From an uncultured Candidatus Saccharibacteria bacterium (lineage in GTDB: Bacteria > Patescibacteriota > Minisyncoccia > Phycocordibacterales > DATDWN01): 64,000 bases of DNA. A program made the position numbers and the translations under genes. The notes below the pieces were generated by a model. It worked only from the letters and a program-made list of their open reading frames with translations, did no database searches and was not told the DNA's origin. Each line of letters starts with the position of its first letter. The first letter of the stretch is position 1. Positions 12,649 through 45,474 of the stretch are shown here, piece by piece. The stretch is taken from positions 81,644 through 145,643 of the forward strand of contig CAZQYV010000001.1 in NCBI GenBank assembly GCA_964597675.1. Reading direction: 5' to 3'.

Positions 12649-15600
12649 ATGTCTCTATTCAATCGTATTCGTACCCTATTATTAATCTGTGCTCTCATCT
12701 TTGCAGGGAGTGTTGCACTGCACACCATACACGCACAGTCATCTGGCTACACACCAGTGTCAGTCAACTCTCCCACCAACACCTCACTCAAAGTGACAGC
12801 AACACCTCTAGAGTTAAACAACACCACAAACATGTGGTCCTACAAGATAGACTGGAAGAGAACACGTAATGCACAAGGTTCTATATCTATTGCAGAAGAG
12901 TCATCTCCTACAACTAAAGTCCTCTCACTCTCTCCTGCATCACAAGAGGGAAGTCAGACTGTCACACTCAAACCCTCTACTACATACAGAGTGAAGTTCT
13001 ACAGTACAACGGGATATGGTGGAACACTCATCTTGAGCAAAAAGATGACAACTCTCGCTACATCTGATGAGGATCCTGACCTAGAGGACGATGTGGTGAA
13101 TACAGATACTTCTATCACAGGTCTTCAAACGCAGATTGCATCTCTCCTTGCACAGATCAATGAACTCCGAGCACGATTAGCGGGGGGGACACCTGTGACT
13201 ACTAGCACCAGTTCAAGTCCTGCTGTTGTGACTACAACAGTATCTACAGGCACTGGGAGTTATGATCCTGCGGTGGATAACAGATCAACCAACACATTTT
13301 ACATTGCACCTAAGTCACAGGTAAAAACAGGTAGCAAACCTGCCTATTTCTTTGTGCGTATCGGTAAATATGGAAGTCAGAGCAGTGCTATATCAGAATT
13401 TAAAAATGTACCAAAAGGTATGAATGTCACTTTCTATAGGTTAGATAAAGATAGGATTGACCCTTCATGGTATTCAGGAGAGAAATTACCGGTTGATCAA
13501 TATTCATATACAGGAACTAGTTTTCCAATATTTGCGTATCTTAAATCAGTCCAACCATACCCATTGGCAAAATGGCTTGGGACGTATCAGCGTTGGTTAA
13601 AACCTGATGAAAATATGGCCAGAAGCCAATTTGGCGGACCTAATATTATTAACGACGGCACAGCTATTCTTAGGTCTGGAGAAATGGGGCTGTTAAAAGT
13701 TGATACAGATACAGATTTTACGGCTGGACCTGGGACATATACTATTACAGCAGTCGAGAGTACTAATCAAGGTTCAGATATTGCGGGACAATATAATTCA
13801 TCGGCTACGAAAAAAGAAGTAACATTTAGTGTTGTAATCGGTGATCAGGTGGCAATGTGTCTCAGTGATTTAAAGACGTGGCCAAGTCCAACAGCAAAAA
13901 ATTCTAAAACACTTCCTGATGCATTTAAACTATCTGGCGATCCTGGAAGATTTAATGATGCCTGTGATCCAAGTATTGGCGCAAATGCTTCAGGATTTCC
14001 AAATTTTACTGACAGAAAGAAGCCGTTATTGCAGGATTGTGTTACTAAAGCACAAAAACAAGCAGATGCTCTCGGTGTTCCCATGTCTTGTTCTATCATT
14101 ACAGAGGCAAGTGGTGGTTATTTCCGAGCTGGCTGTATAATCACTGGTACTGGCTATGAATTTCAAGCAGCACAATTGGTTGGAACAGGACAAGTTGGTA
14201 CAAATCAGCAGTATTCTCAGGGTAGTTGGAGAGATGTAGAGAGGACAATTCTTCAAAGACAAGCAGAAAAAGTGGCTGATCGTGGATATGTATATTATGA
14301 TAACGACTCAAATGTTTGGCGAGCAATGAATCAGACTGTAGCAGACGCACCAGCATCTTGTGATAAGTTGCTCGATGTTGATGTTAAAAGCGTTAATAAA
14401 GAATGGAATATTTCCATTCATGCTAAGTCACTGACAGAAGGTTCTGTTATTCCAATCGAAATTGTTGCACACCCATCGGTTAAATCAGTTAGTCTATATC
14501 TGCTTAAAGATTATACGAATGGTTCGAACGCAAGAGAGTGGTGGAATGATGAGTATGCCAAACTTTCATCAGCAACTTCTTGGAGTTCATGGATTGGTGA
14601 GAAAAATGCAGCTCAATCACCACAAAGAAATTTAATTGGATATCCAGAATATCATCCACAGGTTGCGTTGACTATGCAGAGAGTCAACTTGGTAAATGGT
14701 AAGGGTACAATACAGTGGACTGTTCCTTCTAAGCTTGAGCCATATCAAGAAATGGGCTGGAACCAAGGAGGACAAGGCGGTTTGCAGCCAGCCGTTCAAT
14801 ATAGTATTAGAGCGATAGCAGACAATAGTATATGGTCTGATAGTCCTAGTTTTACTATATTATCTAATACTCAATCATGTAACTTACTCGAGGGTACAGC
14901 ATGTGATTCATCAAAGGTTACTGAGTCTGTGCAGTCCGGTTCATCTGGAGGTTATGCATTATGGGTAAATGGCCGCGATTTGTATAGGTCTTTCGGTGTA
15001 ATGGGTCAAGGAGTTGCTCCTCTAGATGTTCGAATTACAACTGCTGATGCAACATATAAAACTGGAGATCCTCATCCAAGTAGTTCTGTTCCACTTCCTG
15101 TTCCAGTAACGGCAGGCAAACCAATTCAGATTTCAGGATACATGTTTAATAATTCGACCAAAAAAGTTGATATTGATCTGTTAAATATTGGCACCCCTCT
15201 GTGTCAAAGCAGTGTCAACCAAGCGTATCAAGTGTTCCATGCTTGTGAGCAAGAATATTATTCAAAACCAATAGTGACATGGTCAATTGCTCGGGATATA
15301 CCATCACGCATTATAACTGATTCATTAGGATATAATACATGGTTCTTTAATCACATCTTTACAGTACCATCTGATGCGATTGTTCCCGGTAAATACGTCA
15401 TTCGCATAACCGATCCTGATTTCTTGTATAGTTATGCTGGACAGGAGAGAGGAACAGCTATATTTGGATTTCAGGGTGGTGTAGCATTTAGTCCATCATT
15501 TGAGGTGATCGGTTCATCACAGCCTGCTACAGGACAGACGCCAACTCCGACAACACCTTCAACACCAACTAGCGCAACACCAGTTTCTAATGCTTCAGGT

Positions 15601-15882
15601 GTGGACGGATTCTCTTCAGTATGTGAATCTACATCAACCTTCTGGTTTAGAAACAACGCATCGGCATATAATCTATATCGAAACACAACAAATAATGTTT
15701 CGACTGCACAGAAAATCTTGAGTAACATATCTTATATGCCTGGGAGTAGTACGGGCGGGTATGTTGATAAACCGCAGAGAGGAACATACTTCTATTGGGT
15801 AGAAAATGTTGGAAGTACTGTAAAAGCCCCTTCTGCAAAGAATGCAATAGATGGTGTACCGGTCATGTCATGTCTCTTCTAA
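12649..15882 (+). CDS. large secreted protein, paralog A (1077 aa): signal peptide, shared Fn3-like N-terminal module, coiled coil, Thr/Ser linker, divergent large C-terminal domains ending in a second Fn3-like domain
   Basis: Signal peptide MSLFNRIRTLLLICALIFAGSVALHTIHAQ; about 110 aa module shared with the two downstream genes; Y-x-Y-x-V beta-sandwich signatures. Confidence 0.7.
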   Translation: MSLFNRIRTLLLICALIFAGSVALHTIHAQSSGYTPVSVNSPTNTSLKVTATPLELNNTTNMWSYKIDWKRTRNAQGSISIAEESSPTTKVLSLSPASQEGSQTVTLKPSTTYRVKFYSTTGYGGTLILSKKMTTLATSDEDPDLEDDVVNTDTSITGLQTQIASLLAQINELRARLAGGTPVTTSTSSSPAVVTTTVSTGTGSYDPAVDNRSTNTFYIAPKSQVKTGSKPAYFFVRIGKYGSQSSAISEFKNVPKGMNVTFYRLDKDRIDPSWYSGEKLPVDQYSYTGTSFPIFAYLKSVQPYPLAKWLGTYQRWLKPDENMARSQFGGPNIINDGTAILRSGEMGLLKVDTDTDFTAGPGTYTITAVESTNQGSDIAGQYNSSATKKEVTFSVVIGDQVAMCLSDLKTWPSPTAKNSKTLPDAFKLSGDPGRFNDACDPSIGANASGFPNFTDRKKPLLQDCVTKAQKQADALGVPMSCSIITEASGGYFRAGCIITGTGYEFQAAQLVGTGQVGTNQQYSQGSWRDVERTILQRQAEKVADRGYVYYDNDSNVWRAMNQTVADAPASCDKLLDVDVKSVNKEWNISIHAKSLTEGSVIPIEIVAHPSVKSVSLYLLKDYTNGSNAREWWNDEYAKLSSATSWSSWIGEKNAAQSPQRNLIGYPEYHPQVALTMQRVNLVNGKGTIQWTVPSKLEPYQEMGWNQGGQGGLQPAVQYSIRAIADNSIWSDSPSFTILSNTQSCNLLEGTACDSSKVTESVQSGSSGGYALWVNGRDLYRSFGVMGQGVAPLDVRITTADATYKTGDPHPSSSVPLPVPVTAGKPIQISGYMFNNSTKKVDIDLLNIGTPLCQSSVNQAYQVFHACEQEYYSKPIVTWSIARDIPSRIITDSLGYNTWFFNHIFTVPSDAIVPGKYVIRITDPDFLYSYAGQERGTAIFGFQGGVAFSPSFEVIGSSQPATGQTPTPTTPSTPTSATPVSNASGVDGFSSVCESTSTFWFRNNASAYNLYRNTTNNVSTAQKILSNISYMPGSSTGGYVDKPQRGTYFYWVENVGSTVKAPSAKNAIDGVPVMSCLF

Positions 15883-15941: not shown

Positions 15942-16330
15942 TGATATAATACACCAATGAACATATCAAAATATCTTAGTACCCCTTTACTCATCCTCAC
16001 CATCCTTCTTACTACACTCTGGAGTGTACACACCCTACACGCACAGTCATCTGGCTACACACCAGTGTCAGTCAACTCTCCCACCAACACCTCACTCAAA
16101 GTGACAGCAACACCTCTAGAGTTAAACAACACCACAAACATGTGGTCCTACAAGATAGACTGGAAGAGAACACGTAATGCACAAGGTTCTATATCTATTG
16201 CAGAAGAGTCATCTCCTACAACCAAAGTCCTCTCACTCTCTCCTGCATCACAAGAGGGTACACAGACTGTCACACTGAAACCTTCTACTACATACCGAGT
16301 GAAGTTTTATAGTACAACGGGGTATGGAGG
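15942..16330 (+). repeat. about 390 bp segment (promoter, signal peptide, N-terminal module) nearly identical to 18770..19158; a 220 bp core is also shared with 12731..12950
   Basis: Direct nucleotide comparison shows only a couple of mismatches over hundreds of bases. Confidence 0.8.
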
Positions 16331-18722
16331 AACAGTTATATTAAGCAAGAAACTTACGACATTGTCTTTTGACGATGAACAGCCAGATATTGATGCAACC
16401 TATGTGCAGATAAAACCAGCAAATATATTGCAGACACAGATAAGTGAATTACTTGCGATTATTGCACGATTACGTGCACAACTTGATGCAATATCAATTT
16501 CAACCACAACCCCTCGCATACAACCGCCACAGCCAGCCCTGTGTACTATGGAAGTACGTCTCTGTCCGGACGGTATAACTTATGTTGGACGCACAGGTCC
16601 ACAGTGTGAGTCTGCACCATGTCCTGTAAGTCCAAGTGTTCCATCAAGTCCTGTAAATGTACAAAATACGGTAGTAGTATCAAATAAAAGTGATGTCACT
16701 GTAACCAATTACCCGATGCAAATAGGTAGACCATTTAAGCAGGGTGAGATTGTGGGATATCCTAGTGTGTCGATAAATGGGTCGACTGTACTTACTCAGG
16801 CAGATGTAAAAAATCGATGGTCAGACGGTAGTGTAAAATTTGCAATACTTTCTTTTGTTCTACCGAATTTATCAGCAAATTCTACATTAACATTAGCATT
16901 TTCTAATCAATCGTCTGGTAACAATACTGCGTTGACGAAAAGCCAAATGCTTGGAACCAATTACAATTTTGATGCTCAAATAAAATTGACTAGTGGAGGT
17001 AATACAAAGATGGTATCTGCACGAGACATGCTATCCAATGGTGATTATGTGGTATGGACGAGTGGACCCGTGGCCACAACGATTATTCTTGCCGATCATT
17101 CTGCTGATAGAAAATATGATATGGGATTTGATTCTCACAAATCATTTAGACCAATTTTCGAAGCAACATTTTGGCCAGCAACAAATCAAGTAAGAGTAAG
17201 ATATATTGGTGAAAATAGTAATACAAAATCACTCCAAGATATACAATATGACCTTGCTTTGACACTTGGTTCAGTAAATCCAAAGTCTGTGTATAGTCGA
17301 GCAGGGTTGGCCCATCCTTTGCTCACTCGTTGGACAAAAGTTTTTTGGCTAAATGGTGCACCAAATCAGAAAATCAATGTCGATAATAATTTAGCATATC
17401 TCAGTCAGACAACATATTTTCCAGTGTTTGATATGACAGTTAGTGTTCCGGATGAAGTTGTAGCCTCTGCATATAGTTCTTGGCAAAATAATCCACACGA
17501 CCTATACGATTCTGGTGGTTGGACAAAATATATGCCAACAACTGGCGGAAGGTCAGATATTTCACCATTTACCAATTGGACAATGCGTTGGTTATATACA
17601 GGTGATTGGCGTACACGAGAGATTGCTCTGGGAATGGGTGATTTGGCTGGAGCATGGCGCTTGCATGCTCGTGAAGGAGACTCAACAAAAAAAATAGATA
17701 AAGCACAGACTCAATCTGGACTTACTTTGCCGATATCGGTGTATGCATATCCAAATCTATGGCTGCCCGACAACAACGGTTCCTATGGACAATTAGCAAT
17801 TCCGAACGCTCGGGTGGTTGATAACGGCTGGGTGGCTGATAATGCTCACCAACCGGATCCATTTTATGCCGAGTATGTGCTGACTGGTGATCATTGGTAT
17901 CTAGAAGAAGCGCAGATGTGGGCTAGTATGAGTGCCTTGGCAAACTGTCCCGGAAGTGCACAGTGGTGTCGCGGTTCGGGAATGGCGGGACTACAAGATC
18001 AGGTACGTGGTGATGCATGGGCATTCCGTAATCGTATGAATGCTGCTTTCATCACTCCAGATGATATGCAGACACTCAAAAACTTTTATACTAATATGGT
18101 CAATGATGTTTTGGCTTTTTGGGAAGGGAAAGCTGGAATTACTGGCACGGGGTTTCAAAATACTACTGAATGGAAATGGGCAAACACAAATACGTACAAG
18201 GTTGCACGAACAAACCCGCTCCATTTTTGGTCAATTGATGGTGCTCCACCATACTATTATGCTCCATGGCAGCAGTATTATCTTTTGACAGTGCTTGGAA
18301 TAGCAAAAGAAAGGGGATATGCGACCCGTCCGTTATTTGATTTTCTCAGTACTATGCTAACAAAACAAATATCAGCTGAGCGGTATAATCCATTCAATTT
18401 GGCATCATATTCTATTCAGGTTTCGGATGCAAAAGGAAATTGGTACCCTACATGGGGAGATGTACAGGCGGCAAACGTTGACCGTGACTATATGAAGGCA
18501 ACTGGTGATTTTTTAGCAACTAATAATGGTGCATATTATCCAATACTTGCAACAGCCGCTTCTTCATTTATGACATCTACTTCAGATGGTATGTCTACAT
18601 GGAATTTCTTGAAGACTAATGTGAAAGATAGTTCATTACGTAAATTACTAACCGTACCGGGTTGGTATACGAGTTACTATGATGGTACTGGGGAACTTGG
18701 ATGGAATATTATTCCACGTTGA
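15957..18722 (+). CDS. large secreted protein, paralog B (921 aa): same N-terminal module, a 4-Cys CTME[VA]RLCPDGITYVGRTGPQC module, then a divergent C-terminal region of unknown (possibly carbohydrate-active) function
   Basis: N-terminal 130 aa nearly identical to paralogs A and C; TATAAT 6 nt upstream of the ATG; C-terminal Trp-rich region. Confidence 0.7.
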   Translation: MNISKYLSTPLLILTILLTTLWSVHTLHAQSSGYTPVSVNSPTNTSLKVTATPLELNNTTNMWSYKIDWKRTRNAQGSISIAEESSPTTKVLSLSPASQEGTQTVTLKPSTTYRVKFYSTTGYGGTVILSKKLTTLSFDDEQPDIDATYVQIKPANILQTQISELLAIIARLRAQLDAISISTTTPRIQPPQPALCTMEVRLCPDGITYVGRTGPQCESAPCPVSPSVPSSPVNVQNTVVVSNKSDVTVTNYPMQIGRPFKQGEIVGYPSVSINGSTVLTQADVKNRWSDGSVKFAILSFVLPNLSANSTLTLAFSNQSSGNNTALTKSQMLGTNYNFDAQIKLTSGGNTKMVSARDMLSNGDYVVWTSGPVATTIILADHSADRKYDMGFDSHKSFRPIFEATFWPATNQVRVRYIGENSNTKSLQDIQYDLALTLGSVNPKSVYSRAGLAHPLLTRWTKVFWLNGAPNQKINVDNNLAYLSQTTYFPVFDMTVSVPDEVVASAYSSWQNNPHDLYDSGGWTKYMPTTGGRSDISPFTNWTMRWLYTGDWRTREIALGMGDLAGAWRLHAREGDSTKKIDKAQTQSGLTLPISVYAYPNLWLPDNNGSYGQLAIPNARVVDNGWVADNAHQPDPFYAEYVLTGDHWYLEEAQMWASMSALANCPGSAQWCRGSGMAGLQDQVRGDAWAFRNRMNAAFITPDDMQTLKNFYTNMVNDVLAFWEGKAGITGTGFQNTTEWKWANTNTYKVARTNPLHFWSIDGAPPYYYAPWQQYYLLTVLGIAKERGYATRPLFDFLSTMLTKQISAERYNPFNLASYSIQVSDAKGNWYPTWGDVQAANVDRDYMKATGDFLATNNGAYYPILATAASSFMTSTSDGMSTWNFLKTNVKDSSLRKLLTVPGWYTSYYDGTGELGWNIIPR

Positions 18723-18784
18723 TAGTACTAAAATTTTTGTTTAGATGGATATTGTAGGATGTGTTTATGTGTTATAATACACCA

Positions 18785-20173
18785 ATGAACATATCAAAAT
18801 ATCTTAGTACCCCTTTACTCATCCTCACCATCCTTCTTACTACACTCTGGAGTGTACACACCCTACACGCACAGTCATCTGGCTACACACCAGTGTCAGT
18901 CAACTCTCCCACCAACACCTCACTCAAAGTGACAGCAACACCTCTAGAGTTAAACAACACCACAAACATGTGGTCCTACAAGATAGACTGGAAGAGAACA
19001 CGTAATGCACAAGGTTCTATATCTATTGCAGAAGAGTCATCTCCTACAACCAAAGTCCTCTCACTCTCTCCTGCATCACAAGAGGGTACACAGACAGTCA
19101 CACTGAAACCTTCTACTACATACAGAGTGAAGTTTTATAGTACACCAAACTACACAGGCACTGCTATTTTGAGTAGGAGAATGACAACACTTTCAATATA
19201 TGATGAAGAGCCAGATGTTGAAAATATCATACCCCCTGTTTCCATGGATTCAAGTATAACTAATCTTCAGTCACGTATCTCTGAATTGTTACGTATGATA
19301 GAACAATTACGAGGACAAATTGGTCGCAGTGTATCTTCGTCTTCTACCGCAACAAGTACAGCCACTACAACAAATCCTCTAATTTCACTTCCGCAACAAC
19401 CTGTAGCATGCACCATGGAGGCACGCCTGTGCCCAGATGGTATTACATATGTAGGACGAACCGGCCCGCAGTGTGAATTTGGAGCATGTCCTGTAAAAAA
19501 ATGTGATACTGGATTACTCTACATGCCATCATGTTCTGGCGTACCTGTTCAAAATCCAAACACATGTGAAATAACGTGTCAGTCTAGTGCACAGTCAGCA
19601 CGAGTAACAATTACAACAAACTATAGCGAGCCACTTCTTTTGGGTTCATATAGTAATTTGTCATTTCAGGTATCATTGCCACAAAATGTAAATCCAAATC
19701 CTGACTATACATTCAAGTTAGTCGGTAGTATTCCTGGTATGATTTTTGAAAATATGTGGTGTGACCAAGTGGGTTATGGAGGAATCTGTCCTAAAATGGT
19801 AAGTGTATCAAGTGTCATGTATCTTGACGGCAGACCAACTCAAGTGGGAATATATCCCATTACTCTTGTTGCCACAGATCAATATGGTAATACAGGATCA
19901 AAAACTATAAACATAGAAGTGGTTAGTTTGAAACCGTTACCACTTATTACTCAATGTCTCTATGCTGCACCACCAGATGGTTGTAGTTATATTCCCGGAC
20001 CGAATTATAATCCTCAGACAACATGCGGTATGATTCTTTCCTGTAATGCAGAGACAGCATGTCAAAATGTTGAAGTGGGTGTAATGCGAACTTGCTTGAC
20101 AGGATATGTTTCAAAATTAAATCCAAAAACGTGTATATATGAGTGTGCACCTGTTGGTAGCAGTTCAGAATAG
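18785..20173 (+). CDS. secreted protein, paralog C (463 aa): same N-terminal module and Cys module, with a Cys-rich C-terminal region
   Basis: Start at MNISKYL, identical to paralog B including the upstream tataatacacca; the ORF track starts 24 nt earlier at 18761. Confidence 0.7.
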   Translation: MNISKYLSTPLLILTILLTTLWSVHTLHAQSSGYTPVSVNSPTNTSLKVTATPLELNNTTNMWSYKIDWKRTRNAQGSISIAEESSPTTKVLSLSPASQEGTQTVTLKPSTTYRVKFYSTPNYTGTAILSRRMTTLSIYDEEPDVENIIPPVSMDSSITNLQSRISELLRMIEQLRGQIGRSVSSSSTATSTATTTNPLISLPQQPVACTMEARLCPDGITYVGRTGPQCEFGACPVKKCDTGLLYMPSCSGVPVQNPNTCEITCQSSAQSARVTITTNYSEPLLLGSYSNLSFQVSLPQNVNPNPDYTFKLVGSIPGMIFENMWCDQVGYGGICPKMVSVSSVMYLDGRPTQVGIYPITLVATDQYGNTGSKTINIEVVSLKPLPLITQCLYAAPPDGCSYIPGPNYNPQTTCGMILSCNAETACQNVEVGVMRTCLTGYVSKLNPKTCIYECAPVGSSSE

Positions 20174-27075: not shown

Positions 27076-27211
27076 TAAACTTCCAAATTTGGCGATCTCC
27101 TCGTCTCGAGTTTAAAAATGTTCGGCATCGTATGTACAATACGACTTCTCACATTTCCAAACTCTCGACATCAGATATCATCCAAATTATGAAAGTTTAA
27201 TACAAAATACA

Positions 27212-28040: not shown

Positions 28041-28512
28041 TCTATTAGAATATCAAAAATTCTTATCCCTCGCTTTGCTCGGGATCTGCAAATTCTCATG
28101 CTTCGGACTACCTCAGCATCCGGAATTTTCATAGTCGGCGCCTTTGGCGCCTCGTTGAAAATTCGGACTTGACAAATGGGTGGGGGATAGATTATACTGG
28201 TACCAGTGGATGGGTAGAGGGGTCTGGAGGTAAGGTGTTGGCTCAGCCACCCTCCTCCAGACCGCCTGGTCCTCTCACTGTTCTTTCGTTTCTTGTCTGA
28301 TACTTTTGTATCAGATACCAGTCGCAGTCTCTCTTCGGAGGGGCTGTTGTTTTTTTTGTAATTTTTTCTTATCCCTCACTACGTTCGGATATTTGAAATT
28401 CTTATACTTCGGATTACCTCATCATCCGGAAATTCTTATCCATCGCTTCGCTCAGGATCCGGAATTTTCATAGTCGGCACCTTTGGCTCCTCGTTGAAAA
28501 TTCGGACTTGAA
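28041..28512. repeat. repeat-rich non-coding spacer: two copies of a 55 nt imperfect-hairpin unit (28122-28175, 28458-28512) plus tandem 30-35 nt sub-repeats, and a central hairpin cluster ending in a T-run (28210-28340)
   Basis: ccggaattttcatagtcggcgcctttggcgcctcgttgaaaattcggacttga occurs twice; aaattcttatcc...gatc-like units occur three or more times. Confidence 0.6.
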
Positions 28513-28605: not shown

Positions 28606-29220
28606 ATGAAATACCTTCTCGGAACAAAACAAAATATGACCCAAATCTTTGATGATGCGGGTGTCGTACATCCAGTGACTGTCATCAAGACAAGTCCTTT
28701 GGTTGTGACACAGGTCAAAAATGTTGAAAAGGACGGCTATACTGCAGTTCAAGTCGGATACGGTACTCGCCGAGCAAAAAACATAAACAAACCAGAAACT
28801 GGTCAAATGAAAGGTGGTTCATATGCACATCTCAAAGAGTTTCGAGTTGAAGGTGCTCCTACATTTGCTATCGGAGACACCATTGATCTTTCTACATTTT
28901 CTGCAGGGGACACAGTTACCGTTTCATCTATTTCAAAAGGAAAGGGCTTTCAAGGTGTGGTCAAGCGACATGGATTCCACGGTGGCCCCCGATCACACGG
29001 ACAAAAGCATTCAGAACGAGAGCCAGGTTCTATTGGAGGTGCAGGCCGTGATGGAGGACGTGTTGCCAAGGGCAAGCGTATGGCAGGCCGTATGGGAAGT
29101 GACCGCATCACTACAAAAAACCTTACTATTGTTGCAATTAACCCAGAGAACCAAGAAATATTTATTCGAGGAGCAATTGCAGGCCGACGAGGAACGTTAG
29201 TCGAGATCAATGCCGAGTAA
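28606..29220 (+). CDS. rplC: 50S ribosomal protein L3
   Basis: L3 family sequence. Confidence 0.95.
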   Translation: MKYLLGTKQNMTQIFDDAGVVHPVTVIKTSPLVVTQVKNVEKDGYTAVQVGYGTRRAKNINKPETGQMKGGSYAHLKEFRVEGAPTFAIGDTIDLSTFSAGDTVTVSSISKGKGFQGVVKRHGFHGGPRSHGQKHSEREPGSIGGAGRDGGRVAKGKRMAGRMGSDRITTKNLTIVAINPENQEIFIRGAIAGRRGTLVEINAE

Positions 29221-29314
29221 AAATTGAAAAATCAAAATGGAAAATTACAAGACAAAGTCAGAAAATATTAATTAAAATTTTTACTTTTGATTTTTCAATT
29301 TTACATTTAATACC
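29221..29314. repeat. about 90 nt palindromic intergenic repeat element with a perfect 17 bp terminal inverted repeat (aaattgaaaaatcaaaa / ttttgatttttcaattt), MITE-like
   Basis: Related copies at 35276-35377 and 44616-44706. Confidence 0.65.
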
Positions 29315-30076
29315 ATGGAAACAACAACAGCAAAAAAGAATACAAAAGCAGTCAAGGAGCCAAAAGTAAAAGAGGCCATCTCTTTGGATGCAGTTGTTTA
29401 TTCTGACAAAGGCAAGGAGTCTGGTACGATTGCTCTTCCTTCTCACATATTTGGTCTTCCATGGAATGGTGACTTGGTACACCAAGTCGTAACATCAATG
29501 ATGTCTACGGCTCGTACACCTGTTGCCCATACCAAAAATCGCGGAGAAGTTTCTGGTGGTGGTAAAAAGCCATGGCAACAAAAGGGAACTGGTCGTGCAC
29601 GACACGGATCAAATCGATCACCGATCTGGGTTGGTGGAGGTGTTACTCATGGTCCACGAAATGACAAAAATTTTGACCGAAAGGTAAACAAGAAAATGAA
29701 GGCCAAGGCACTTTACACTATTTTGTCTGCAAAATATAAAAAAGGCCAAATTCTCTTTGTTGATGACATGAATCTTGCAAACGCAAAGACAAAAGAGGCA
29801 AAAGTAACACTTTCAGCATTTTCAAAAATTACAGGGTACACAGATATACTTTCAAAAAAGAAAAATTCTGCTTACATTGCGCTCCCTACAAAAAATGTTG
29901 CTGTAGAGCGTGGATTTAGTAACTTCGGTAATCTCGAGGTAGATGAAATTCGAAATATGAATCCACTCGATATTATGCAGTATAAATATTTGGTTATTGC
30001 AAATCCAAAAGTTGGACTATCTCAGGTTGATGCAAAATTGGGTGCAAAAAAAGTAGCCACAACATCTAAAAAATAA
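29315..30076 (+). CDS. rplD: 50S ribosomal protein L4
   Basis: GGGKKPWQQKGTGRAR motif. Confidence 0.95.
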   Translation: METTTAKKNTKAVKEPKVKEAISLDAVVYSDKGKESGTIALPSHIFGLPWNGDLVHQVVTSMMSTARTPVAHTKNRGEVSGGGKKPWQQKGTGRARHGSNRSPIWVGGGVTHGPRNDKNFDRKVNKKMKAKALYTILSAKYKKGQILFVDDMNLANAKTKEAKVTLSAFSKITGYTDILSKKKNSAYIALPTKNVAVERGFSNFGNLEVDEIRNMNPLDIMQYKYLVIANPKVGLSQVDAKLGAKKVATTSKK

Positions 30077-31677: not shown

Positions 31678-31947
31678 GTGACTTGTAAAATTCTGGATGA
31701 ACCAACACTCGCGGAGTCGTTGGTAGAGAATAAACTCCCCACTATCAAGATCGGAGATAGAGGGGAAAGTGATTTGAGTCAGGCAGAGAAATTTGAACGT
31801 CTCTGCAATTTCCTTGATAAGGGAGAGGATGTGGTTGTTATGTTGTTCGGCGACACATGGTATCGCGGTGTCGTCGAGCAGGCTGCCCTGGCACGGGGGT
31901 ATGATGTACTCCATGCCAGGAGTGCCACCGAGTTGGTGGCGGCATGA
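31678..31947 (+). CDS. small GC-rich hypothetical protein (89 aa, GTG start)
   Basis: aggagg RBS 8 nt upstream; own promoter and terminator; GC about 50% versus about 36% in flanking DNA. Confidence 0.5.
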   Translation: MTCKILDEPTLAESLVENKLPTIKIGDRGESDLSQAEKFERLCNFLDKGEDVVVMLFGDTWYRGVVEQAALARGYDVLHARSATELVAA

Positions 31948-32023: not shown

Positions 32024-32302
32024 ATGGTTCAACACAATGATGCTGAGGATGATCCAAAAATCACTATTGAAATTGATTGTTTTGACATCCTATTAAATGC
32101 TTTTATTGTCGCAGTTGGTATGGTAATCCTTACATTTGCAATCAATTCTGTCTCGTGGTTACACACAATTGTTTTCAAAGGTAGAGATGCTAACTATGGG
32201 GCGATATTTAGTCTTTGTTTTCTAACTATTGCTCTGACCCAGTATTTAGCTGAATGGAATGTGATTCAAGAGATAAAGAAGCAACATGGTCGTGGCAAAT
32301 AG
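32024..32302 (+). CDS. small two-TM membrane protein (92 aa)
   Basis: gaaggagg RBS; two hydrophobic segments; hairpin terminator overlapping its 3' end. Confidence 0.5.
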   Translation: MVQHNDAEDDPKITIEIDCFDILLNAFIVAVGMVILTFAINSVSWLHTIVFKGRDANYGAIFSLCFLTIALTQYLAEWNVIQEIKKQHGRGK

Positions 32303-32812: not shown

Positions 32813-33253
32813 ATGGCAACAGCACACGCAACACTTTCAAACTTCCGACAATCACCACGCAAAATGCGCGTGGTTGCAAATCTTGTACGTGGCAAAAAAG
32901 TGTTGGATGCACTCACAAGTCTAGAGTTTACAGACAAGCGAGCATCAGGCCCGATCAAGACACTTATTGCAAGTGCTTTGGCAAATGCAAAGTCTCTGGA
33001 TATTCCAACAGAACATTTGATTATAAAAACAATCGAAGTCAATTCTGGTAAGATTATGTACCGACGTATTCCTGCTGCTCGGGGAAGTGCACATCCGATC
33101 CGCAAGCGAACATCACTTGTTCGTGTCGAGTTGGGCGAGGCAACAACAACAAAGAAGGTGAAAATTGCAAAAGAAAAGGCAATTGCCGCACCTAAAACAG
33201 AGACAAAGGCAAAGAAACCAGCTGTAAAAAAAGTAGCAAAGAAATCAGATTAA
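32813..33253 (+). CDS. rplV: 50S ribosomal protein L22
   Basis: L22 family. Confidence 0.9.
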   Translation: MATAHATLSNFRQSPRKMRVVANLVRGKKVLDALTSLEFTDKRASGPIKTLIASALANAKSLDIPTEHLIIKTIEVNSGKIMYRRIPAARGSAHPIRKRTSLVRVELGEATTTKKVKIAKEKAIAAPKTETKAKKPAVKKVAKKSD

Positions 33254-33289
33254 TTTTTCATTTCGATTTTTTAATTTTAAATTTTATTT

Positions 33290-34903: not shown

Positions 34904-35275
34904 ATGATTCAACCTCGATCAATCGTAAAAATAAGTGACAACTCCGGAGGCAAAATCGGACGTATTTTCAAAGTCCTCGGAAGTTCAAAAAAGCGATACG
35001 CACGTATTGGTGAGGTTGTTATGCTTTCTGTTCAAAAGGCAGAACCACGAAAGGCAACAAAAAAGAAAGACGTCTTGTATGCGGTGGTTGTTCGACAAAA
35101 AGCACCATTTCGCCGAAAGGATGGATCATATATCCGATTTGATGAAAATGCAGTGGTTATTATCGTAAAAGACAAAAAAGAGCCAGTGGCAGGACGTATT
35201 TTCGGTCCGATCCCACGAGAGCTTGGTGAAGGGGGATATCAGAAAATCATTTCGTTAGCACCAGAAGTAGTATAG
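34904..35275 (+). CDS. rplN: 50S ribosomal protein L14
   Basis: MIQPRSIVKISDNSG... Confidence 0.95.
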   Translation: MIQPRSIVKISDNSGGKIGRIFKVLGSSKKRYARIGEVVMLSVQKAEPRKATKKKDVLYAVVVRQKAPFRRKDGSYIRFDENAVVIIVKDKKEPVAGRIFGPIPRELGEGGYQKIISLAPEVV

Positions 35276-35377
35276 GAAAGTAAAATATTAAAAATCAAAA
35301 TGGAAAATTACCAGATAAAGTCAAAGAATACTAATTAGAATTTTTACTTTTGATTTTTCAATTTTAAATTTATTACC
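35276..35377. repeat. second copy of the about 90 nt palindromic intergenic element (about 85% identical to 29221-29314)
   Basis: aaaaatcaaaatggaaaattac...tttttacttttgatttttcaattttaaattta. Confidence 0.65.
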
Positions 35378-35593
35378 ATGCATATCAAAAAAGACGACAA
35401 AGTAAAAATACTGTCAGGAAAAGATAAGGGCAAAACTGGCTCGGTGGTTAAGTCATTTCCAAAAGAAAACAAAGTCATTGTTTCAGGTGTCAATGTAGTA
35501 AAGGCACACAAAAAAGCTCGCAAGAGTGGCGAAAAAGGTCAGATTATAGACAAGACAATGCCTATCCACGCATCGAATGTAAAGAAAGTGTAA
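35378..35593 (+). CDS. rplX: 50S ribosomal protein L24
   Basis: KOW motif, 71 aa. Confidence 0.9.
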   Translation: MHIKKDDKVKILSGKDKGKTGSVVKSFPKENKVIVSGVNVVKAHKKARKSGEKGQIIDKTMPIHASNVKKV

Positions 35594-36286: not shown

Positions 36287-36868
36287 ATGTTTGATATTAA
36301 ACTGTTTGTCACTTTGTTGGTATTTTGGGCGGTGATTATGCTGCCAAGATTCATCCGTAACCATTTCGACGATCGTCGCAGGATCAGACGAATGGCTCGG
36401 GAAATAGAGCTTATTGATCAGGCAAAAAAAATCGGTCCGATCCTCATTCAAAATATTGAAGGGGGAATTGTGGCTTTCTGTACTGCTCGTGATTTTTATC
36501 AAGCAGAGAAGATGGCACGGGGTACTGAGGTTTGGAAGCGTGTGAGGGTGGAAGTAATCCCAACCTTTACATTTGCATCAAATGAAGGTGTGAGGGTCGG
36601 TGCTCACACTGGAGTTATGGCAGATGCGGAACTAATCCTAGAAAGCATGATCAGGCGGTCAATCCTAATCTGCAAAGGAGAGCAAATTCCGAGAAAAGTA
36701 TTCAAATACCTCATTCACAAAAATGAGAGACTTCATGTCCCATTCTTGCCAGCGACCGATGATATAGATCGGTTCAAGCGAGAATTAAGGGATTACGGTC
36801 TAACTACGGTCGAACAAGCCGAAAATAACTTTCTGAAGGAGTGCTTGAATATTATTTGGAAGGGGTGA
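36287..36868 (+). CDS. GC-rich hypothetical protein (193 aa, N-terminal TM) inserted between rplE and rpsN with its own promoter and terminator
   Basis: Terminator gagccccgaaaggggttttt before it and acccggttgcagtggtgcaaccgggt after it; RBS ggaagga. Confidence 0.5.
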   Translation: MFDIKLFVTLLVFWAVIMLPRFIRNHFDDRRRIRRMAREIELIDQAKKIGPILIQNIEGGIVAFCTARDFYQAEKMARGTEVWKRVRVEVIPTFTFASNEGVRVGAHTGVMADAELILESMIRRSILICKGEQIPRKVFKYLIHKNERLHVPFLPATDDIDRFKRELRDYGLTTVEQAENNFLKECLNIIWKG

Positions 36869-40826: not shown

Positions 40827-40835
40827 TGTTACTTC

Positions 40836-41885
40836 TTATTTATTATCCCAAAACCAGTACTGATTCTTCAGATTCTCACTCAGTCTATATGCGTTCGCAT
40901 GTGATAGAGCCCCAAGATATGATGCGAATGTTTGATTAAAACTTTCTTTTGAAATTATTCCTTTAGTATACGCATTGAATTTATCTCTATGTTTTCTCTC
41001 AATTCGTCTGAGTGTTTTCTTACGTATGAGTCTATGATACGGACGGAGAATATATCCCAGAAAATCAACACTTCCAGATGCTTTCAGTATTTCTACTTTG
41101 TCTGTATGAAGCCGTAATTTGAGACGATTTCCAAGGAACAGGATGATTGGTTTGATTAAATTTTCCAGATATTTTTTGTCGTTCGAGACGATAATAAAAT
41201 CATCGGTGTATCTGCCATAGTGCTCGACTTTCAGTTTTTGCTTCATATACTGATCAAACTCGTTCATATACATATTGGCAAAGAGTTGAGAGGTGAGGTT
41301 GCCAATTGGTACGCCTGTACGAGTAAAAAGGTTGGAATATCCACTCACAAAACTGTCCACAATTTCTCCAATGAGCCATATTACTTCTTTATCCTTTATC
41401 TTTCTTTGGATCAAGGAAAGAAGAATGGAATGATCGATACTGTCAAAGAATTTTCTCACGTCGCATTTGAGAACGTAGCACGCTCTTGTGTAATTTCTTG
41501 AAACTTTACGAATCATACTTTCTGCCACGTCTACTCCTTTGTGTGATCCTTTTTGGATACGACAGGAAAAAGAGGTGGCGATAAATGTCGGCTCAAACAG
41601 GGGATTCAAAATCTGGTAGACCGCATGATGAAGTACTCGGTCCCGAACTGTTGCCTTGTGGATGTGTCGGAGTTTTGGATCACAAATAAAAAAGTCAGTA
41701 TATCCACCGTGTCTGTAAGTCTTGTCCTTCAAATCTCTATGCAGTTGAAAGAGTTCCTGTTCAAGGTTTTTCTCAAACTTCAGAACGTCAGCCTTCTTTC
41801 CTTTGCCGTGTTTGAATTCTTCCCACGCCCAAAACAGGTTCTCTGGTTCTATAATTTTATTAAATAAATTTTTATATACTTTCAT
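40836..41885 (-). CDS. diversity-generating retroelement reverse transcriptase
   Basis: RT motifs including YTDDFII (YxDD) and the DGR-specific IGNLTSQ ([ILV]GxxxSQ) in place of the group II QGxxxSP; the start MKVYKNLFNKI aligns to DGR RT N-termini; the ORF track start at 41954 is probably too long. Confidence 0.8.
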   Translation of the reverse strand: MKVYKNLFNKIIEPENLFWAWEEFKHGKGKKADVLKFEKNLEQELFQLHRDLKDKTYRHGGYTDFFICDPKLRHIHKATVRDRVLHHAVYQILNPLFEPTFIATSFSCRIQKGSHKGVDVAESMIRKVSRNYTRACYVLKCDVRKFFDSIDHSILLSLIQRKIKDKEVIWLIGEIVDSFVSGYSNLFTRTGVPIGNLTSQLFANMYMNEFDQYMKQKLKVEHYGRYTDDFIIVSNDKKYLENLIKPIILFLGNRLKLRLHTDKVEILKASGSVDFLGYILRPYHRLIRKKTLRRIERKHRDKFNAYTKGIISKESFNQTFASYLGALSHANAYRLSENLKNQYWFWDNK

Positions 41886-42237
41886 GAATGATGCAGATAT
41901 ACCGATACTAAAGAAAACATACGAGCTGTACAAGCTCTTCCATGAATACCGCAAGGTAATTTCAAAAGCAAACCGATTTACTATCTATGAACGATGCGAA
42001 AACCTCATTATTGATCTCATTGAATGTTTTTTTGAAGCAGGATACGCCAAAACTGTAAATAAGGCAGTCATTTTGGATAGAGCAAGTGTTCGTCTAAATA
42101 GTTTGCGATTATTTGTTCGTCTGATGAAAGAAACGTATGCAATCGACAATAAAAAATATCTTGCGCTGCAAACAATTATAGATGAGATTGGGAGAATGCT
42201 TGGTGGTTGGATCAGATCAACCGGTCCTACCACTTAA
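41884..42237 (+). CDS. avd: DGR accessory variability determinant (Avd), four-helix-bundle family
   Basis: 117 aa; the C-terminal IDEIGRMLGGWIRS matches bAvd IAEVGRILGSWIAR; its start codon overlaps the RT start on the opposite strand. Confidence 0.75.
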   Translation: MNDADIPILKKTYELYKLFHEYRKVISKANRFTIYERCENLIIDLIECFFEAGYAKTVNKAVILDRASVRLNSLRLFVRLMKETYAIDNKKYLALQTIIDEIGRMLGGWIRSTGPTT

Positions 42238-42242
42238 ACAAA

Positions 42243-42268
42243 AGGTATCCGAATGGATACCTTTTGTG
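42243..42268. terminator. perfect palindromic bidirectional terminator (ends avd on + and the TR transcript on -)
   Basis: aaaaggtatcc-gaat-ggatacctttt. Confidence 0.65.
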
Positions 42269-42299
42269 ATGAAGGGGAGACTTCGGAACGAGACCGGAC

Positions 42300-42408
42300 G
42301 CGGTACCGTAGTTCGCATTGGCATTGTCGAACCAGTTCGTGTCGAACTTGACCTTGCCGTCGTTGAAGTTGAAGTACGGAGCGTGATCGAAGCGAACATC
42401 GGCATCCG
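42300..42408 (-). repeat. DGR template repeat (TR), Asn-codon rich, minus strand
   Basis: The reverse complement aligns to 43700-43800; over a clean core of about 75 nt every difference is an A in TR versus G in VR. Confidence 0.7.
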
Positions 42409-42724
42409 GAATTTGCCCTTGCTCATCCAGAGCACCAGAGCTTGAAAAAGTTTTCTGTTGGAAACAGATCTCAGTCTCACTCTTGAATTTAACTTGGTAG
42501 CACCCGCCATATAGGCTCAGTGGTCCACCTTAAACAAGGGCAAGCAGTATCTCCTTATCACTACACTCTTTTGGAAATCGTAATCTCCAAAACTCTGGTC
42601 GTTTCTCTTATAGAGGGTAAAGAGAAAGAGTTCGGCGACGGCAATCCATAGACGACCGTTCATGAGCCTAGACTCAAAGGAAGTGTACCAGAAAAGATAT
42701 AAATTAAGCAATATTTATGACCTA

Positions 42725-42753
42725 TTGACAAAAAAGCCATTTGGGTGTATAAT
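42725..42753 (+). promoter_or_regulatory. sigma70-like promoter of the DGR target gene (TTGACA, 17 nt spacer, TATAAT)
   Basis: ttgacaaaaaagccatttgggtgtataat. Confidence 0.6.
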
Positions 42754-42788
42754 ATATAGTGGAGGGGCTTTCTGACATTCACTGTTTT

Positions 42789-42835
42789 GAGACGAGCTTT
42801 TTGAGCCTTATTTTAGGACCTAAAAAGCTCGTCTC
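42789..42835 (+). promoter_or_regulatory. 14 bp stem-loop in the about 140 nt 5' UTR of the DGR target gene
   Basis: gagacgagcttttt...aaaaagctcgtctc. Confidence 0.4.
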
Positions 42836-42898
42836 ACAAGGACAAGTCGCAACAAAAGCCGGGGCGAATCTGGTAAATCAGGAAAGGGAGATAACGTC

Positions 42899-43834
42899 AT
42901 GACGACGATTACTCAAGCAACTTCCGGTCAGAAGAAACAGAATAGCCGTTTTCTCGAGGACGCCTTTCAGGCACTCAAAACGGAATTGGAAACCATGTTT
43001 GGTGAACTCGACACCGAGAACGCTCAACGATTCCTCGGTAACGGCGACGAATTCAAAGCCGATGTTCAGAAGGCAGCTCTCGACTCGTTCGGACGCCTGT
43101 CCATCTCGAATCAGTTCGCCAACGAAGAAGTGGAATCGACCTACGGCTACCTCTCGGGCTATCAGAAGCCGAAGGGATTGACCGAGCAGGCCAACCGCTT
43201 GCGTGAACTGTTCTCTGGTGCCGGTTTCGTCAACCTCGATCTGCAAGGCAGAATCGAGAAGGGTGAGATCGCACTGCCAGCATACGCCGAAGGTTGGTCC
43301 GTCATTCCCAACTGGATGAAGAATCCGGAGGCATGGGGCACCTACAACGAGGCACTGCAAAAAGTCCTTGACGCAATCAAGAAGACTCGCAACGGTGCCT
43401 TCTACAACTACCGCGAGGGTCAGATCGGTCCCGAGCGTCTGCGCCAAACGAAGCGTGCGGAGAAATTCTTCCGTGAGCTTTCGGAAGCACAAGGCAATCC
43501 GGATCTCTTAATCGTCCCGACCCAGTTCGGCATCCGCCATCGCGGCCGTTCGGTTCGCCGATCCCGCGAGGTTATGCTGGACAATGGCAACGAGTTCGGA
43601 CTCGGCGCATTCGCAATCGGCATCATGATCCTCGCCCATCCCGAGAGACTGAAAAACGTGGATGATCTGTGGATCGATTGTGCCGGAGACGAATATGCTC
43701 CGGGTGCCGGTGTTCGCTTCGATCGCGCTCCGTACTTCAACTTCAACGACGGCGGGGTCGGGTTCGACGCGGGGTGGACTGGCAGCGCGAGCGGCCGCTA
43801 TGGGTCTTCCTCCGCCTTCCTTCCGCAGCAGTGA
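42899..43834 (+). CDS. DGR target protein (311 aa), GC-rich, with the variable repeat at its C-terminus (C-type-lectin/FGE-like fold suspected); no signal peptide
   Basis: The C-terminus GAGVRFDRAPYFNFNDGGVGFDAGW matches the TR-encoded DADVRFDHAPYFNFNDGKVKFDTNW; ggaaagggag RBS. Confidence 0.7.
   Translation: MTTITQATSGQKKQNSRFLEDAFQALKTELETMFGELDTENAQRFLGNGDEFKADVQKAALDSFGRLSISNQFANEEVESTYGYLSGYQKPKGLTEQANRLRELFSGAGFVNLDLQGRIEKGEIALPAYAEGWSVIPNWMKNPEAWGTYNEALQKVLDAIKKTRNGAFYNYREGQIGPERLRQTKRAEKFFRELSEAQGNPDLLIVPTQFGIRHRGRSVRRSREVMLDNGNEFGLGAFAIGIMILAHPERLKNVDDLWIDCAGDEYAPGAGVRFDRAPYFNFNDGGVGFDAGWTGSASGRYGSSSAFLPQQ
43700..43800 (+). repeat. DGR variable repeat (VR)
   Basis: See the TR entry; the 3' third has diverged with non-adenine changes as well. 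Confidence 0.65.
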
Positions 43835-44027
43835 TCGCTTGCTCCTCGAATTCTTGAGTCTTTTGATTTCTTTTCTCTTGATTCTTGAATTCGCCGGCAA
43901 AATTCGGGCTACTCACAACGTGTGGGTGGCCCGATTTTCTTTTGTATAAAATTAATTATAGGGATTTTTTTGATAGATTTGCTATACTACTTGGTATAGC
44001 ATTTGTTTTATATTTTAACCGTATTTT

Positions 44028-44615
44028 ATGTCTCCTCATACATTTGTGTTTATCGGACGTTCTGGTTGTGGTAAAGGTACTCAGGCGGGTTTGCTCATGC
44101 AGCAGATTGGAGAGAAGAAAGTCGGTGAACCAATTTTTTATCTTGAAACAGGTCAGAAATTTCGCGATTTTATTGGAGGCGCTGGATACACAAACACTCT
44201 CGCACGCACCATCCAAGAAGCCGGAGGACTCCAGCCATCTTTTTTGGCGGTTTGGATGTGGTCAAATATCTTTATTGACAAATTGACTGATAAGGATCAT
44301 TTGGTTATTGATGGTACTCCACGCAAACTTGGTGAGGCAATTATTTTCACCGAAGCAATGAAGTTTTACAATCGAAGACCGATTGTTATATATATCAATG
44401 TATCTCGTGAGTGGTCAGAGGCACGGCTATCAGATCGGCATCGGTCTGACGATATGAGTGAAGTCATAAAAAATCGCCTTGATTGGTTTGACACGGATGT
44501 CTTTCCGGCGGTAGAGTACTTCAAGACAAACCCCGATGTCCAGTTTCTCGATATAAACGGTGAACGAGCGATTGAGGAGATTCAGGATGATATTTTAGAA
44601 AAATTAAAAATTTAA
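44028..44615 (+). CDS. adk: adenylate kinase
   Basis: P-loop GRSGCGKGTQ; normal position after secY, displaced here by the DGR. Confidence 0.8.
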   Translation: MSPHTFVFIGRSGCGKGTQAGLLMQQIGEKKVGEPIFYLETGQKFRDFIGGAGYTNTLARTIQEAGGLQPSFLAVWMWSNIFIDKLTDKDHLVIDGTPRKLGEAIIFTEAMKFYNRRPIVIYINVSREWSEARLSDRHRSDDMSEVIKNRLDWFDTDVFPAVEYFKTNPDVQFLDINGERAIEEIQDDILEKLKI

Positions 44616-44706
44616 AAATCAAAAAGGAAAATTAATATACATTTTTACTTTTTACTTTTGATTTTTCATTTTTAAATTGGTGAAAATCTAGGTTAAATGA
44701 TTATCT
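44616..44706. repeat. third, more diverged copy of the palindromic intergenic element
   Basis: aaaaatcaaaaaggaaaattaat...ttttacttttgatttttcatttttaaatt. Confidence 0.5.
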
Positions 44707-45474
44707 ATGATAACAATAAAGACAAAGGAGGAGATTGAAATACTAAATGAGGGCGGTCGCCGTCATGCTTTTATCTTGTCTCAGGTTGCGGAAAAAGTTG
44801 CTCCTGGTGTTTCTACTGCTTCGCTCGAGGATTATGCTAGAGAATTGATTAAGGAGGGCGGTGATCTTGCTGCGTTTTTAAACTACACACCACGTGGTGC
44901 ACGCCGTGCGTATCCAGCGGCCTTGTGTGTATCGGTTAATGATGAAATCGTCCACGGTATTCCAAATGAGGATCCAAAAATCTTACAGGAAGGAGATGTT
45001 GTTGCGCTTGACCTCGGGCTAATTCACCAAGGACTTATTACTGACAGTGCAATTACGGTAGGAGTTGGGGCAATTACTCCGGAGGAAAGGAAACTGATTG
45101 AACACACAAAAGAAGCGTTATTTATTGGTATTAAACAAGCGCGGGGAGGTGGTCGGATCGGGGACATTGGACATGCAATCGAGTCATTTGTCCGCCCATT
45201 GGGCTATGGGCTCTGCGAGGGGCTCGCAGGGCACGGTGTTGGCTACAAAGTGCACGAGGACCCCTTTGTACCAAACGAAGGGCGTAGGGGCTCTGGGGAC
45301 CTTTTGAAGCCAGGTATGGTTATTGCAATCGAGCCCATGCTCACCCTCGGTACAGATAGGATTGTCCTCTCTGCAGATGGGTATACATACAAAACAGAGG
45401 ATGGTTCAAAGTCGGCACATTTCGAACACACCATTGCTATTACAGACTCCGACCCTATCATACTTACAAAATAA
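44707..45474 (+). CDS. map: methionine aminopeptidase type I
   Basis: MAP metal-ligand pattern; 255 aa. Confidence 0.9.
   Translation: MITIKTKEEIEILNEGGRRHAFILSQVAEKVAPGVSTASLEDYARELIKEGGDLAAFLNYTPRGARRAYPAALCVSVNDEIVHGIPNEDPKILQEGDVVALDLGLIHQGLITDSAITVGVGAITPEERKLIEHTKEALFIGIKQARGGGRIGDIGHAIESFVRPLGYGLCEGLAGHGVGYKVHEDPFVPNEGRRGSGDLLKPGMVIAIEPMLTLGTDRIVLSADGYTYKTEDGSKSAHFEHTIAITDSDPIILTK

Follow-up and report, generated by a model that had tools for sequence, protein, structure and literature searches.

Short AT-rich palindromic repeats inserted between ribosomal protein genes of a Paceibacteria-like bacterium

Palindromic elements in the ribosomal cluster

The DNA analysed here is a stretch of 64,000 nucleotides (the window), which has an overall GC content of 40.8%. 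It comes from a Patescibacteria bacterium and contains the str-S10-spc-adk-map gene cluster. The closest named matches of its L4 protein belong to Minisyncoccia, Zambryskibacteria, Parcubacteria, and Paceibacterota, and the organism is a Paceibacteria-like CPR bacterium. One related palindromic element, designated family A, lies in each of the rplC-rplD, rplN-rplX, and adk-map spacers (Table 1). An initial reading from the sequence only had placed related elements of about 90 nt in these three spacers, and all three were confirmed there, copy 3 being a short form of about 70 nt. That reading had also described the other genes of the cluster as only a few nucleotides apart; many spacers are indeed 4-21 nt, but the cluster also has inserted ORFs and a repeat.

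Table 1. Coordinates of the genes, palindromic elements, and other features in the window and in contigs of relatives
Feature	Sequence	Position	Strand	Location or remark
L3	window	28606-29220		Pfam
L4	window	29315-30076		Pfam
L14	window	34904-35275		Pfam
L24	window	35378-35593		Pfam
adk	window	44028-44615		Pfam
map	window	44707-45474		Pfam
Family A copy 1, long form	window	29218-29303	+	rplC-rplD spacer
Family A copy 2, long form	window	35281-35366	+	rplN-rplX spacer
Family A copy 3, short form, about 70 nt	window	44605-44674	+	adk-map spacer
Solo right-arm-like segment TTTTTCATTTCGATTTTTTAATTTTAAATTT	window	33250-33287	+	whole rplV-rpsC spacer, left arm absent
Mini-ORF, 12 codons, MENYKTKSENIN and stop	window	29237-29275	+	centre of copy 1
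Mini-ORF, 12 codons, MENYQIKSKNTN and stop	window	35300-35338	+	counterpart in copy 2
Extra TTTTTAC heptad, 7-nt tandem duplication	window	44649-44655	+	right arm of copy 3; absent from sister strains
Hypothetical inserted ORFs	window	31678-31947, 32024-32302, 36287-36868, 42899-43834		ribosomal cluster; strong Shine-Dalgarno sites
Reverse-transcriptase gene	window	40836-41954	-	between secY and adk
Three large paralogous ORFs (1077, 921, 470 aa)	window	12649-15882, 15957-18722, 18761-20173		between rpsG and fusA
Tandem and interspersed repeats	window	28057-28511		between S10-downstream ORF and rplC
tRNA region (ARAGORN)	window	56068-56142, 61114-61201, 61525-61614, 60700-61520		
AT-rich hairpin pair (AGTAAAAAGTAAATAGTAAGAAGTAAAAATTACATCTTACT...)	window	48822-48887, 49074-49162	-	infC-rpmI and rpmI-rplT spacers
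Family B	window	27077-27201		tuf-S10 spacer
Family B	window	499-617		
Family B	L113	8369-8496		
Family B	L116	8708-8835, 15418-15543		
Family B	L218	15563-15690, 6861-6978		
Family B	L218	19379-19501	-	
Family B	L220	8328-8456, 10090-10214		
Family B	L114	5787-5926, 18170-18257		
Family B	L114	4443-4561	-	
Family B	L216	6187-6311, 7221-7346		
Family B	L216	14294-14406	-	
Private 125-nt hairpin repeat	L216	13718-13843, 18815-18938, 19486-19609		S19-L22, S8-L6, and L6-L18
Second short repeat pair	L216	9931-10000, 11047-11089		L3-L4 and L23-L2

The positions of the copies relative to the adjacent genes should be noted. Copy 1 has the form TA-AAAATTGAAAAATCAAAATGGAAAATT ... AATTTTTACTTTTGATTTTTCAATTT-TA; its first bases include the rplC stop codon TAA (29218-29220), and 11 nt lie between its end and the rplD ATG (29315). 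Copy 2 begins 5 nt past the rplN stop codon TAG and finishes 11 nt before the rplX ATG. Copy 3 is without the 29-nt centre of the long forms. Its homology starts within the last adk codons (stop codon, 44613-44615), and its first 11 nt overlap the native adk tail. This tail is regarded as native because the C terminus of Adk has the same length and sequence as in relatives, one of which (L223) ends TTA AAA ATA TAA; the inserted part proper would thus be about 44616-44674. All family A copies, with an element length of 70-86 nt, a GC content of about 18%, and the ends TAAAAATTGAAAAATCAAAA, are in gene orientation.

An HMM built from the three copies, which match it by construction, gives in nhmmer 35280-35386 (E = 3e-26), 29217-29322 (E = 8e-26), and 44605-44691 (E = 6e-15) as its only significant matches on the plus strand of the 64 kb. 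The solo right arm shares about 83-85% identity with its counterparts in copies 1 and 2; its HMM match (33250-33284, E = 0.35) is not significant alone, and blastn aligns it at 83% over 36 nt (E = 2e-5). Between copies 1 and 2, blastn gives 89% identity over 102 nt and an ungapped comparison 85% over 115 nt, the latter agreeing with the initial estimate of about 85%. All three copies contain the 19-mer TTTTACTTTTGATTTTTCA without a mismatch, and at up to three mismatches it has five matches in the window against 0.11 expected from shuffles. The 11-mer core AAAAATCAAAA / TTTTGATTTTT is found six times, once in each of the two arms of the three copies, and nowhere else in the 64 kb. Within the window, the family has three full copies and one partial copy, all of them in one 16-kb cluster (29.2-44.7 kb), with none in the remaining 46 kb or so.

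The arms are composed of degenerate A5NN / T5NN heptads. In copy 1 they are 27 nt long and 89% complementary (29220-29246 / 29276-29302) and include a perfect run of 17-18 bp, in accordance with the perfect terminal inverted repeat first reported for this element. The arms of copy 2 are 33 nt and 76% complementary (35277-35309 / 35339-35371), and those of copy 3 are 27-34 nt and 79-85% complementary. Both long copies have a mini-ORF with an A-rich context upstream of its ATG, the only ORF in the family; it is missing from copy 3, where ATG is replaced by AAG. Since the changes between the two mini-ORFs are mostly nonsynonymous and copy 3 is without one, the mini-ORF is probably not meaningful.

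The predicted RNA of copy 1 folds with a minimum free energy of -17.7 kcal/mol (z = -2.9; -18.7 on the minus strand), whereas copy 2 (-9.8 kcal/mol, z = -0.34) and copy 3 (-14.7, z = -1.1) fold no better than shuffled sequences. The plus and minus strands of the family fold equally well. Copy 2 has three changes in its outer left arm without compensation in the right arm, and no compensatory substitutions are found among the copies; the hairpin of copy 2 has decayed. Neither the structure nor the sequence of family A shows a sign of selection.

Rfam gives nothing at the elements, either at the gathering threshold or at E up to 5. The terminator scan finds 30 GC-rich terminator-like sites in 27-46.5 kb, none of which is within an element; the stems are almost purely A-U, unlike the short GC-rich stem and U tract of an intrinsic terminator. 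On the coding strand of the elements, the promoter scan gives one weak promoter-like match (9/12), inside copy 1, and the other calls are minus-strand hexamer matches expected for AT-rich DNA.

Comparison with sister strains and relatives

A strain with about 97.5% DNA identity, represented by two JGI contigs (L152 and L170), has exactly the same copies 1 and 2. Two ENA contigs encoding an identical Adk protein have copy 3 with one TTTTTAC heptad fewer, as seen by aligning the window and L213 against L214 and L215. All three copies are therefore at the same sites in sister strains, the 7-nt heptad indel is the only difference, and no presence/absence difference of family A was found between strains of the species. 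Copies at the same positions in related genomes, initially proposed as a sign of a regulatory RNA rather than of mobility, occur only in these nearly identical strains, where such sharing is trivial. No substitution is found in 196 nt of two spacers, while about 4% of third codon positions differ nearby. This identity was rejected as a sign of selection: the divergence between the strains is mosaic, with neighbouring identical blocks longer than 1 kb.

In nine relatives, whose L4 is 68-74% or Adk 75-78% identical to that of the window, 14 loci (164 kb) contain no match to family A (E < 0.1). The L3-L4 spacers of relatives (seven genomes) are 4, 15, 16, 16, 36, and 70 nt, the longest holding an unrelated repeat, compared with 94 nt in the window. 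The spacer between adk and map (or the next gene) is 15, 12, and 4 nt in three genomes and 91 nt in the window, and the L22-S3 spacer is 1-20 nt in relatives and 36 nt in the window. In L222, the closest contig by Adk identity, spacers are short across the whole cluster. The L3, L14, and Adk proteins have the same ends as their homologues, indicating that the copies lie 0-5 nt past native stop codons and that the 11-32 nt nearest to the next start codons have been kept. Since the spacers of relatives are short and without the element, and since sister strains carry the copies, this comparison of genomes shows the family A copies to be lineage-specific insertions fixed within the species.

Three details of the insertion sites were considered. 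Removal of copy 3 together with one TA would give an Adk ending in EKLNW, like many relatives; this is treated as a coincidence, because nearly the same codons give the present ending EKLKI in the element-free L223 and all relatives have the same protein length. For L3, a possible reconstruction after excision ends in NAEYI, followed by TAAtaccATG. The rplD and rplX start codons are preceded by 11-nt stretches that agree at 9/11 positions, which is no more than unrelated gene pairs show.

Each copy is bounded by TA (29218-19/29302-03, 35281-82/35365-66, and 44605-06/44673-74). TA is self-complementary and common at about 18% GC, so these flanks are indistinguishable from an extension of the inverted repeat and are uninformative. 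No longer target-site repeat consistent across the copies is found, and the 64 kb (49 window ORFs searched against Pfam or NCBIfam) contains no transposase domain or matching IS end. The absence of an empty site among strains of the species argues against recent mobility. When metagenomes were scanned with a pattern matching all three copies, the sister-strain sample gave only the two orthologous copies, which weakly suggests that the copy number in the whole genome is not high.

Sequences similar to the arms are present elsewhere. The 20-nt right arm has 111 single matches in a genome collection without the source genome, all in unrelated AT-rich genomes, many of them Chitinophagaceae. The two-arm pattern retrieves 95 loci from JGI metagenomes, only two of which, L152 and L170 of the sister strain, hold a real family A element. 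The others are mostly A/T palindromes built of heptads with a GC hairpin at the centre, and the one examined (L168) lies between convergent genes in DNA that looks Bacteroidota-like. No homology is claimed for these loci, because 25 matching bases are imposed by the search pattern. A viral scan gave one irrelevant match.

The arm TTTTTACTTTTGATTTTT and its complement likewise form heptad palindromes around GC hairpins (L006, 7729-7852; L077, 2192-2315; L033, 3733-3831; L168, 11842-11937). Palindromes of this type are also found at about 90 metagenome loci (L117-L211), as a multi-copy repeat in sample Ga0247740, and the genomes with such arms include many Chitinophagaceae and other Bacteroidota. 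They are probably convergent low-complexity sequences rather than homologues.

Other palindromic families and inserted genes

A second palindrome of about 125 nt, family B, has the form TAAAACTTCCAAATT...GTCACC-stem-loop-GCTCC...AAATTTGAAAGTTTTA and is flush with stop codons. It is clade-wide and found in both orientations, with two copies in the window and others in six relatives; 1.4 Mb of unrelated control loci have none. The junctions it occupies differ by genome (L14-L24, S3-L16, L24-L5, L22-S3, secY-adk, and tuf-S10), and Rfam gives no match over the window copies. Subfamily alignments were used for its covariation, since a plain MAFFT alignment of all copies misaligns the centre and gives no structure in RNAalifold. 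In these alignments, 22/30 base pairs have compensatory Watson-Crick changes on both sides, a level reached by 0/500 shuffles; slid controls are at most 0.16 against 0.43, and G-U intermediates are almost absent. Changes on both sides with almost no G-U intermediates point to symmetry maintained at the DNA level rather than to an RNA fold. Family B shares with family A the genomes, the operon, the stop-flush placement, and TAAAA...TTTTA termini; it differs in being clade-wide, in both orientations, and strongly structured, and no homology between the two is detectable. We consider it more interesting than family A.

Further palindromes are found in the same setting. The three copies of a private 125-nt hairpin repeat in L216 are 99% identical, and the same relative has a second, short repeat pair. 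In the infC operon of the window, the two AT-rich hairpins align with each other (z = 10) and fold strongly (z = -5 to -6.5). Homology of family A to this pair was rejected, the resemblance being only marginal (z = 0.1-3.7). Seven of the eight palindromic copies in the window lie in translation operons, which cover about 55% of it (our own binomial P of about 0.06, not significant), and no preference for such operons is claimed since only translation operons were sampled in the relatives.

The motif GGAG/GAGG is found at positions -20 to -4 of 0/44 native genes. The organism appears to be without Shine-Dalgarno sites, and downstream genes therefore probably rely on translational coupling or on an A/U-rich context. 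The four hypothetical ORFs inserted in the ribosomal cluster have strong Shine-Dalgarno sites and no match in Pfam, NCBIfam, or PADLOC. Inserted ORFs are flanked by consensus or near-consensus TTGACA-17-TATAAT promoters (31633 and 42725) and by GC-rich terminators (31952, 32288, 36874, and 43904). They occupy the S10-L3, L2-S19, L5-S14, and secY-adk junctions of the window, the first three of which also have inserted ORFs in relatives.

Several other features of the window were observed. The reverse-transcriptase gene (RVT_1, group-II-intron-like, 164 bits versus a cutoff of 300) lies with the promoter-equipped ORF 42899-43834 between secY and adk (about 40828-43977). The sister strain contig L152 has no such block, adk following secY within about 40 nt, and the relative L218 has a reverse-transcriptase gene between L5 and S14. 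The three paralogous ORFs between rpsG and fusA have a common 300-nt 5' repeat (83-100% identity), and the fusA-tuf interval contains a 982-aa ORF and a DUF5663-like ORF; relatives likewise have large ORFs in the rpsG-fusA-tuf region. The repeats upstream of rplC are spaced by 306 and 339 nt and contain GC hairpins, and one repeat unit (28125-28396) is absent in the sister strain. ARAGORN predicts tRNA genes for Ile (anticodon TAT) and for Ser (anticodon ACT, which is unusual), and the repeat families D7, D14, D16, and D20 surround the two tRNA-Ser genes.

Probable origin and possible roles of the family A elements

The REP/BIME and ERIC/IRU repeats resemble family A in being short imperfect palindromes that are intercistronic or at 3' ends, often just after stop codons, and that form hairpins in mRNA. 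REPs are GC-rich, 20-40 nt long, and tied to RAYT transposases; RUP has an IS630-type partner. Family A, by contrast with REPs, has about 18% GC and a length of 70-86 nt, and the window shows neither a RAYT nor a TnpA gene. The RUP, BOX, and SPRITE repeats of Streptococcus pneumoniae and the Rickettsia palindromic elements (RPEs) are comparable as lineage-restricted small repeats of AT-rich reduced genomes with stable stem-loops (PMC3049150, PMC10969869). They differ from family A as seen in the window in being dispersed, with tens to hundreds of copies, and, in the case of RPEs, in their in-frame insertion into genes. Correia elements (CREE/NEMIS) of Neisseria share with family A the terminal inverted repeats, the long and short (centre-deleted) forms, and the TA ends (PMC2649163, PMC10969869). 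They are about 100-155 bp long, intergenic, and co-transcribed with their neighbours into a transcript with a long hairpin (PMC2649163, PMC10969869). There is no sequence similarity between the two: the 26-bp inverted repeat of Correia is family-specific and different on inspection, and the IHF site, end-generated promoter, and RNase III cleavage are Correia traits. Correia elements are also dispersed in hundreds of copies in Neisseria, compared with the 3.5 clustered copies of family A seen in the window. The Correia, REP/ERIC, and RUP/RPE-type small repeats are nevertheless the closest analogues (PMC2649163, PMC2229807, PMC10969869), and our full-text literature search found no report of such elements in Patescibacteria.

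The family A elements look like the same kind of element as the bacterial MITE, REP, ERIC, and Correia-type elements, full membership in the MITEs being unproven. The initial proposal of an inserted MITE is partly supported, in that they are multi-copy, AT-rich, noncoding insertions of 70-86 nt, below the MITE limit of about 500 bp, with terminal inverted repeats, and their orthologous sites are empty in nine relatives. On the other side, no demonstrable target-site duplication and, in the 64 kb, no transposase is found, no copy lies in the window beyond this gene cluster, and the strains show no polymorphism. AT-richness, integration into AT-rich intergenic DNA, transcripts with stem-loops, and direct repeats that disappear as the element ages are described for MITEs (PMC10969869). 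We consider it probable, at roughly 0.6, that family A consists of short AT-rich palindromes without a transposase, a species-specific repeat family that is ageing, selfish, and decaying.

According to this explanation, the copies would have landed in the tiny spacers of the S10-spc-adk-map region, 0-5 nt after the upstream stop codon, each insertion leaving the final 11-32 nt before the next start codon intact. They may have spread through a transposase acting in trans or through recombination. Later drift would account for the 11% divergence between copies 1 and 2, the loss of the centre of copy 3, the solo arm in the rplV-rpsC spacer, and the slippage of a heptad. Each copy would be co-transcribed with the operon, and in the mRNA a long all-A-U hairpin may loop out most of the insert. 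Its stem would then have the upstream stop codon at its foot, with 10-31 nt left before the next start codon, an arrangement that would keep the geometry of the native short spacer. The insertions are likely to be tolerated as nearly neutral because the genes have no Shine-Dalgarno motifs, the stem would be weak enough for ribosomes to melt, and the start-proximal bases are untouched; the A/U-rich context or coupling would thus be left undestroyed.

A functional intercistronic RNA hairpin of whatever origin, which is cut by an RNase III-type enzyme, protects the upstream message, or bridges stop and start codons to tune coupling, is unlikely, though several features fit it. The copies are all in the orientation of transcription and only in translation-related operons, they start next to a stop codon with folded stems that finish 10-31 nt before the next ATG, and they are identical between strains that differ nearby at third codon positions. 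Coupling or an A/U-rich context probably matters in genes without GGAG/GAGG motifs, and effects of RNase III or RNase E are known for Correia and ERIC (PMC2649163, PMC10969869), ERIC at gene 3' ends altering mRNA decay (PMC10969869). However, relatives function with spacers of 4-23 nt at the same junctions without the element, there is no covariation and the stem of copy 2 is decayed, and folding has no strand asymmetry. Since the identical blocks form a mosaic, the strain identity is not significant. The junctions occupied by palindromes vary from genome to genome, and such scattered inserts fit proliferating repeats better than a junction-specific regulator. The conserved processing or attenuation hairpin that the sequence-only reading offered as its second option is disfavoured: the elements are not conserved outside the species, being absent from the orthologous spacers of relatives, which also argues against a ribosomal-protein operon leader or attenuator, as does the lack of an Rfam match.

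It is very improbable that the right arm is the working part, as an internal promoter or a U-rich initiation leader for rplD, rplX, rpsC, and map. The arm is the best-conserved block, the only part present between rplV and rpsC, and always directly upstream of a start codon. In the promoter version, TTTACT, 16 nt, and TAAATT or TACATT, ending 6-7 nt before ATG, would give leaderless or near-leaderless transcripts, and TATAAT-like boxes precede the ATG of several native genes by 3-10 nt. TACTTTTG equals the Bacteroidota -7 promoter motif TAnnTTTG (PMC6847099), and the arm itself occurs commonly between genes of Bacteroidota. The hexamers, however, match at 8/12 positions only and are not called by the promoter scan, whereas the recognisable promoters of the window are canonical TTGACA-17-TATAAT. 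Moreover, the arm of copy 3 ends 32 nt from ATG, and relatives express the same genes without the arm.

Equally doubtful is an origin without a transposon, in which A5NN / T5NN heptads born by slippage were spread by ectopic recombination or gene conversion with palindromy as a by-product: the degenerate arms, the heptad indel, the homology of copies 1 and 2 that continues to ATG past any clean boundary, the confinement to 16 kb, and similar heptad palindromes arising independently in many Bacteroidota genomes agree with it, but it leaves the perfect inverted repeat of 17-18 bp and the shared, nonrepetitive 29-nt centre unexplained, the flank similarity is equalled by unrelated gene pairs, and other palindromic families in relatives are clearly dispersed to nonorthologous junctions.

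Family A is apparently the first small palindromic repeat family described for a Patescibacteria ribosomal operon. Its elements can be used as strain or lineage markers and are a warning for gene callers and operon predictors on such genomes. The pattern across the operon is the more interesting lead: several palindromic families and foreign-looking genes bearing Shine-Dalgarno sites colonise it, and these very small genomes tolerate repeated insertion of hairpins and foreign-looking genes in their most conserved operon. This raises the question of how translational coupling is kept up without Shine-Dalgarno sites across a spacer that has been lengthened from about 10 to about 100 nt. It is conceivable, if quite improbable on the present sequences, that in this Shine-Dalgarno-less clade translation operons are the habitat of unrelated palindrome families abutting stop codons, whose hairpins would bridge stop and start codons or direct processing so that coupling and stoichiometry are kept or tuned. 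This reading would cover family A, family B, the private family of L216, and the infC-operon pair. If it is true, the palindromes would represent a new class of element between cistrons, and an undescribed transposition system may have spread them.
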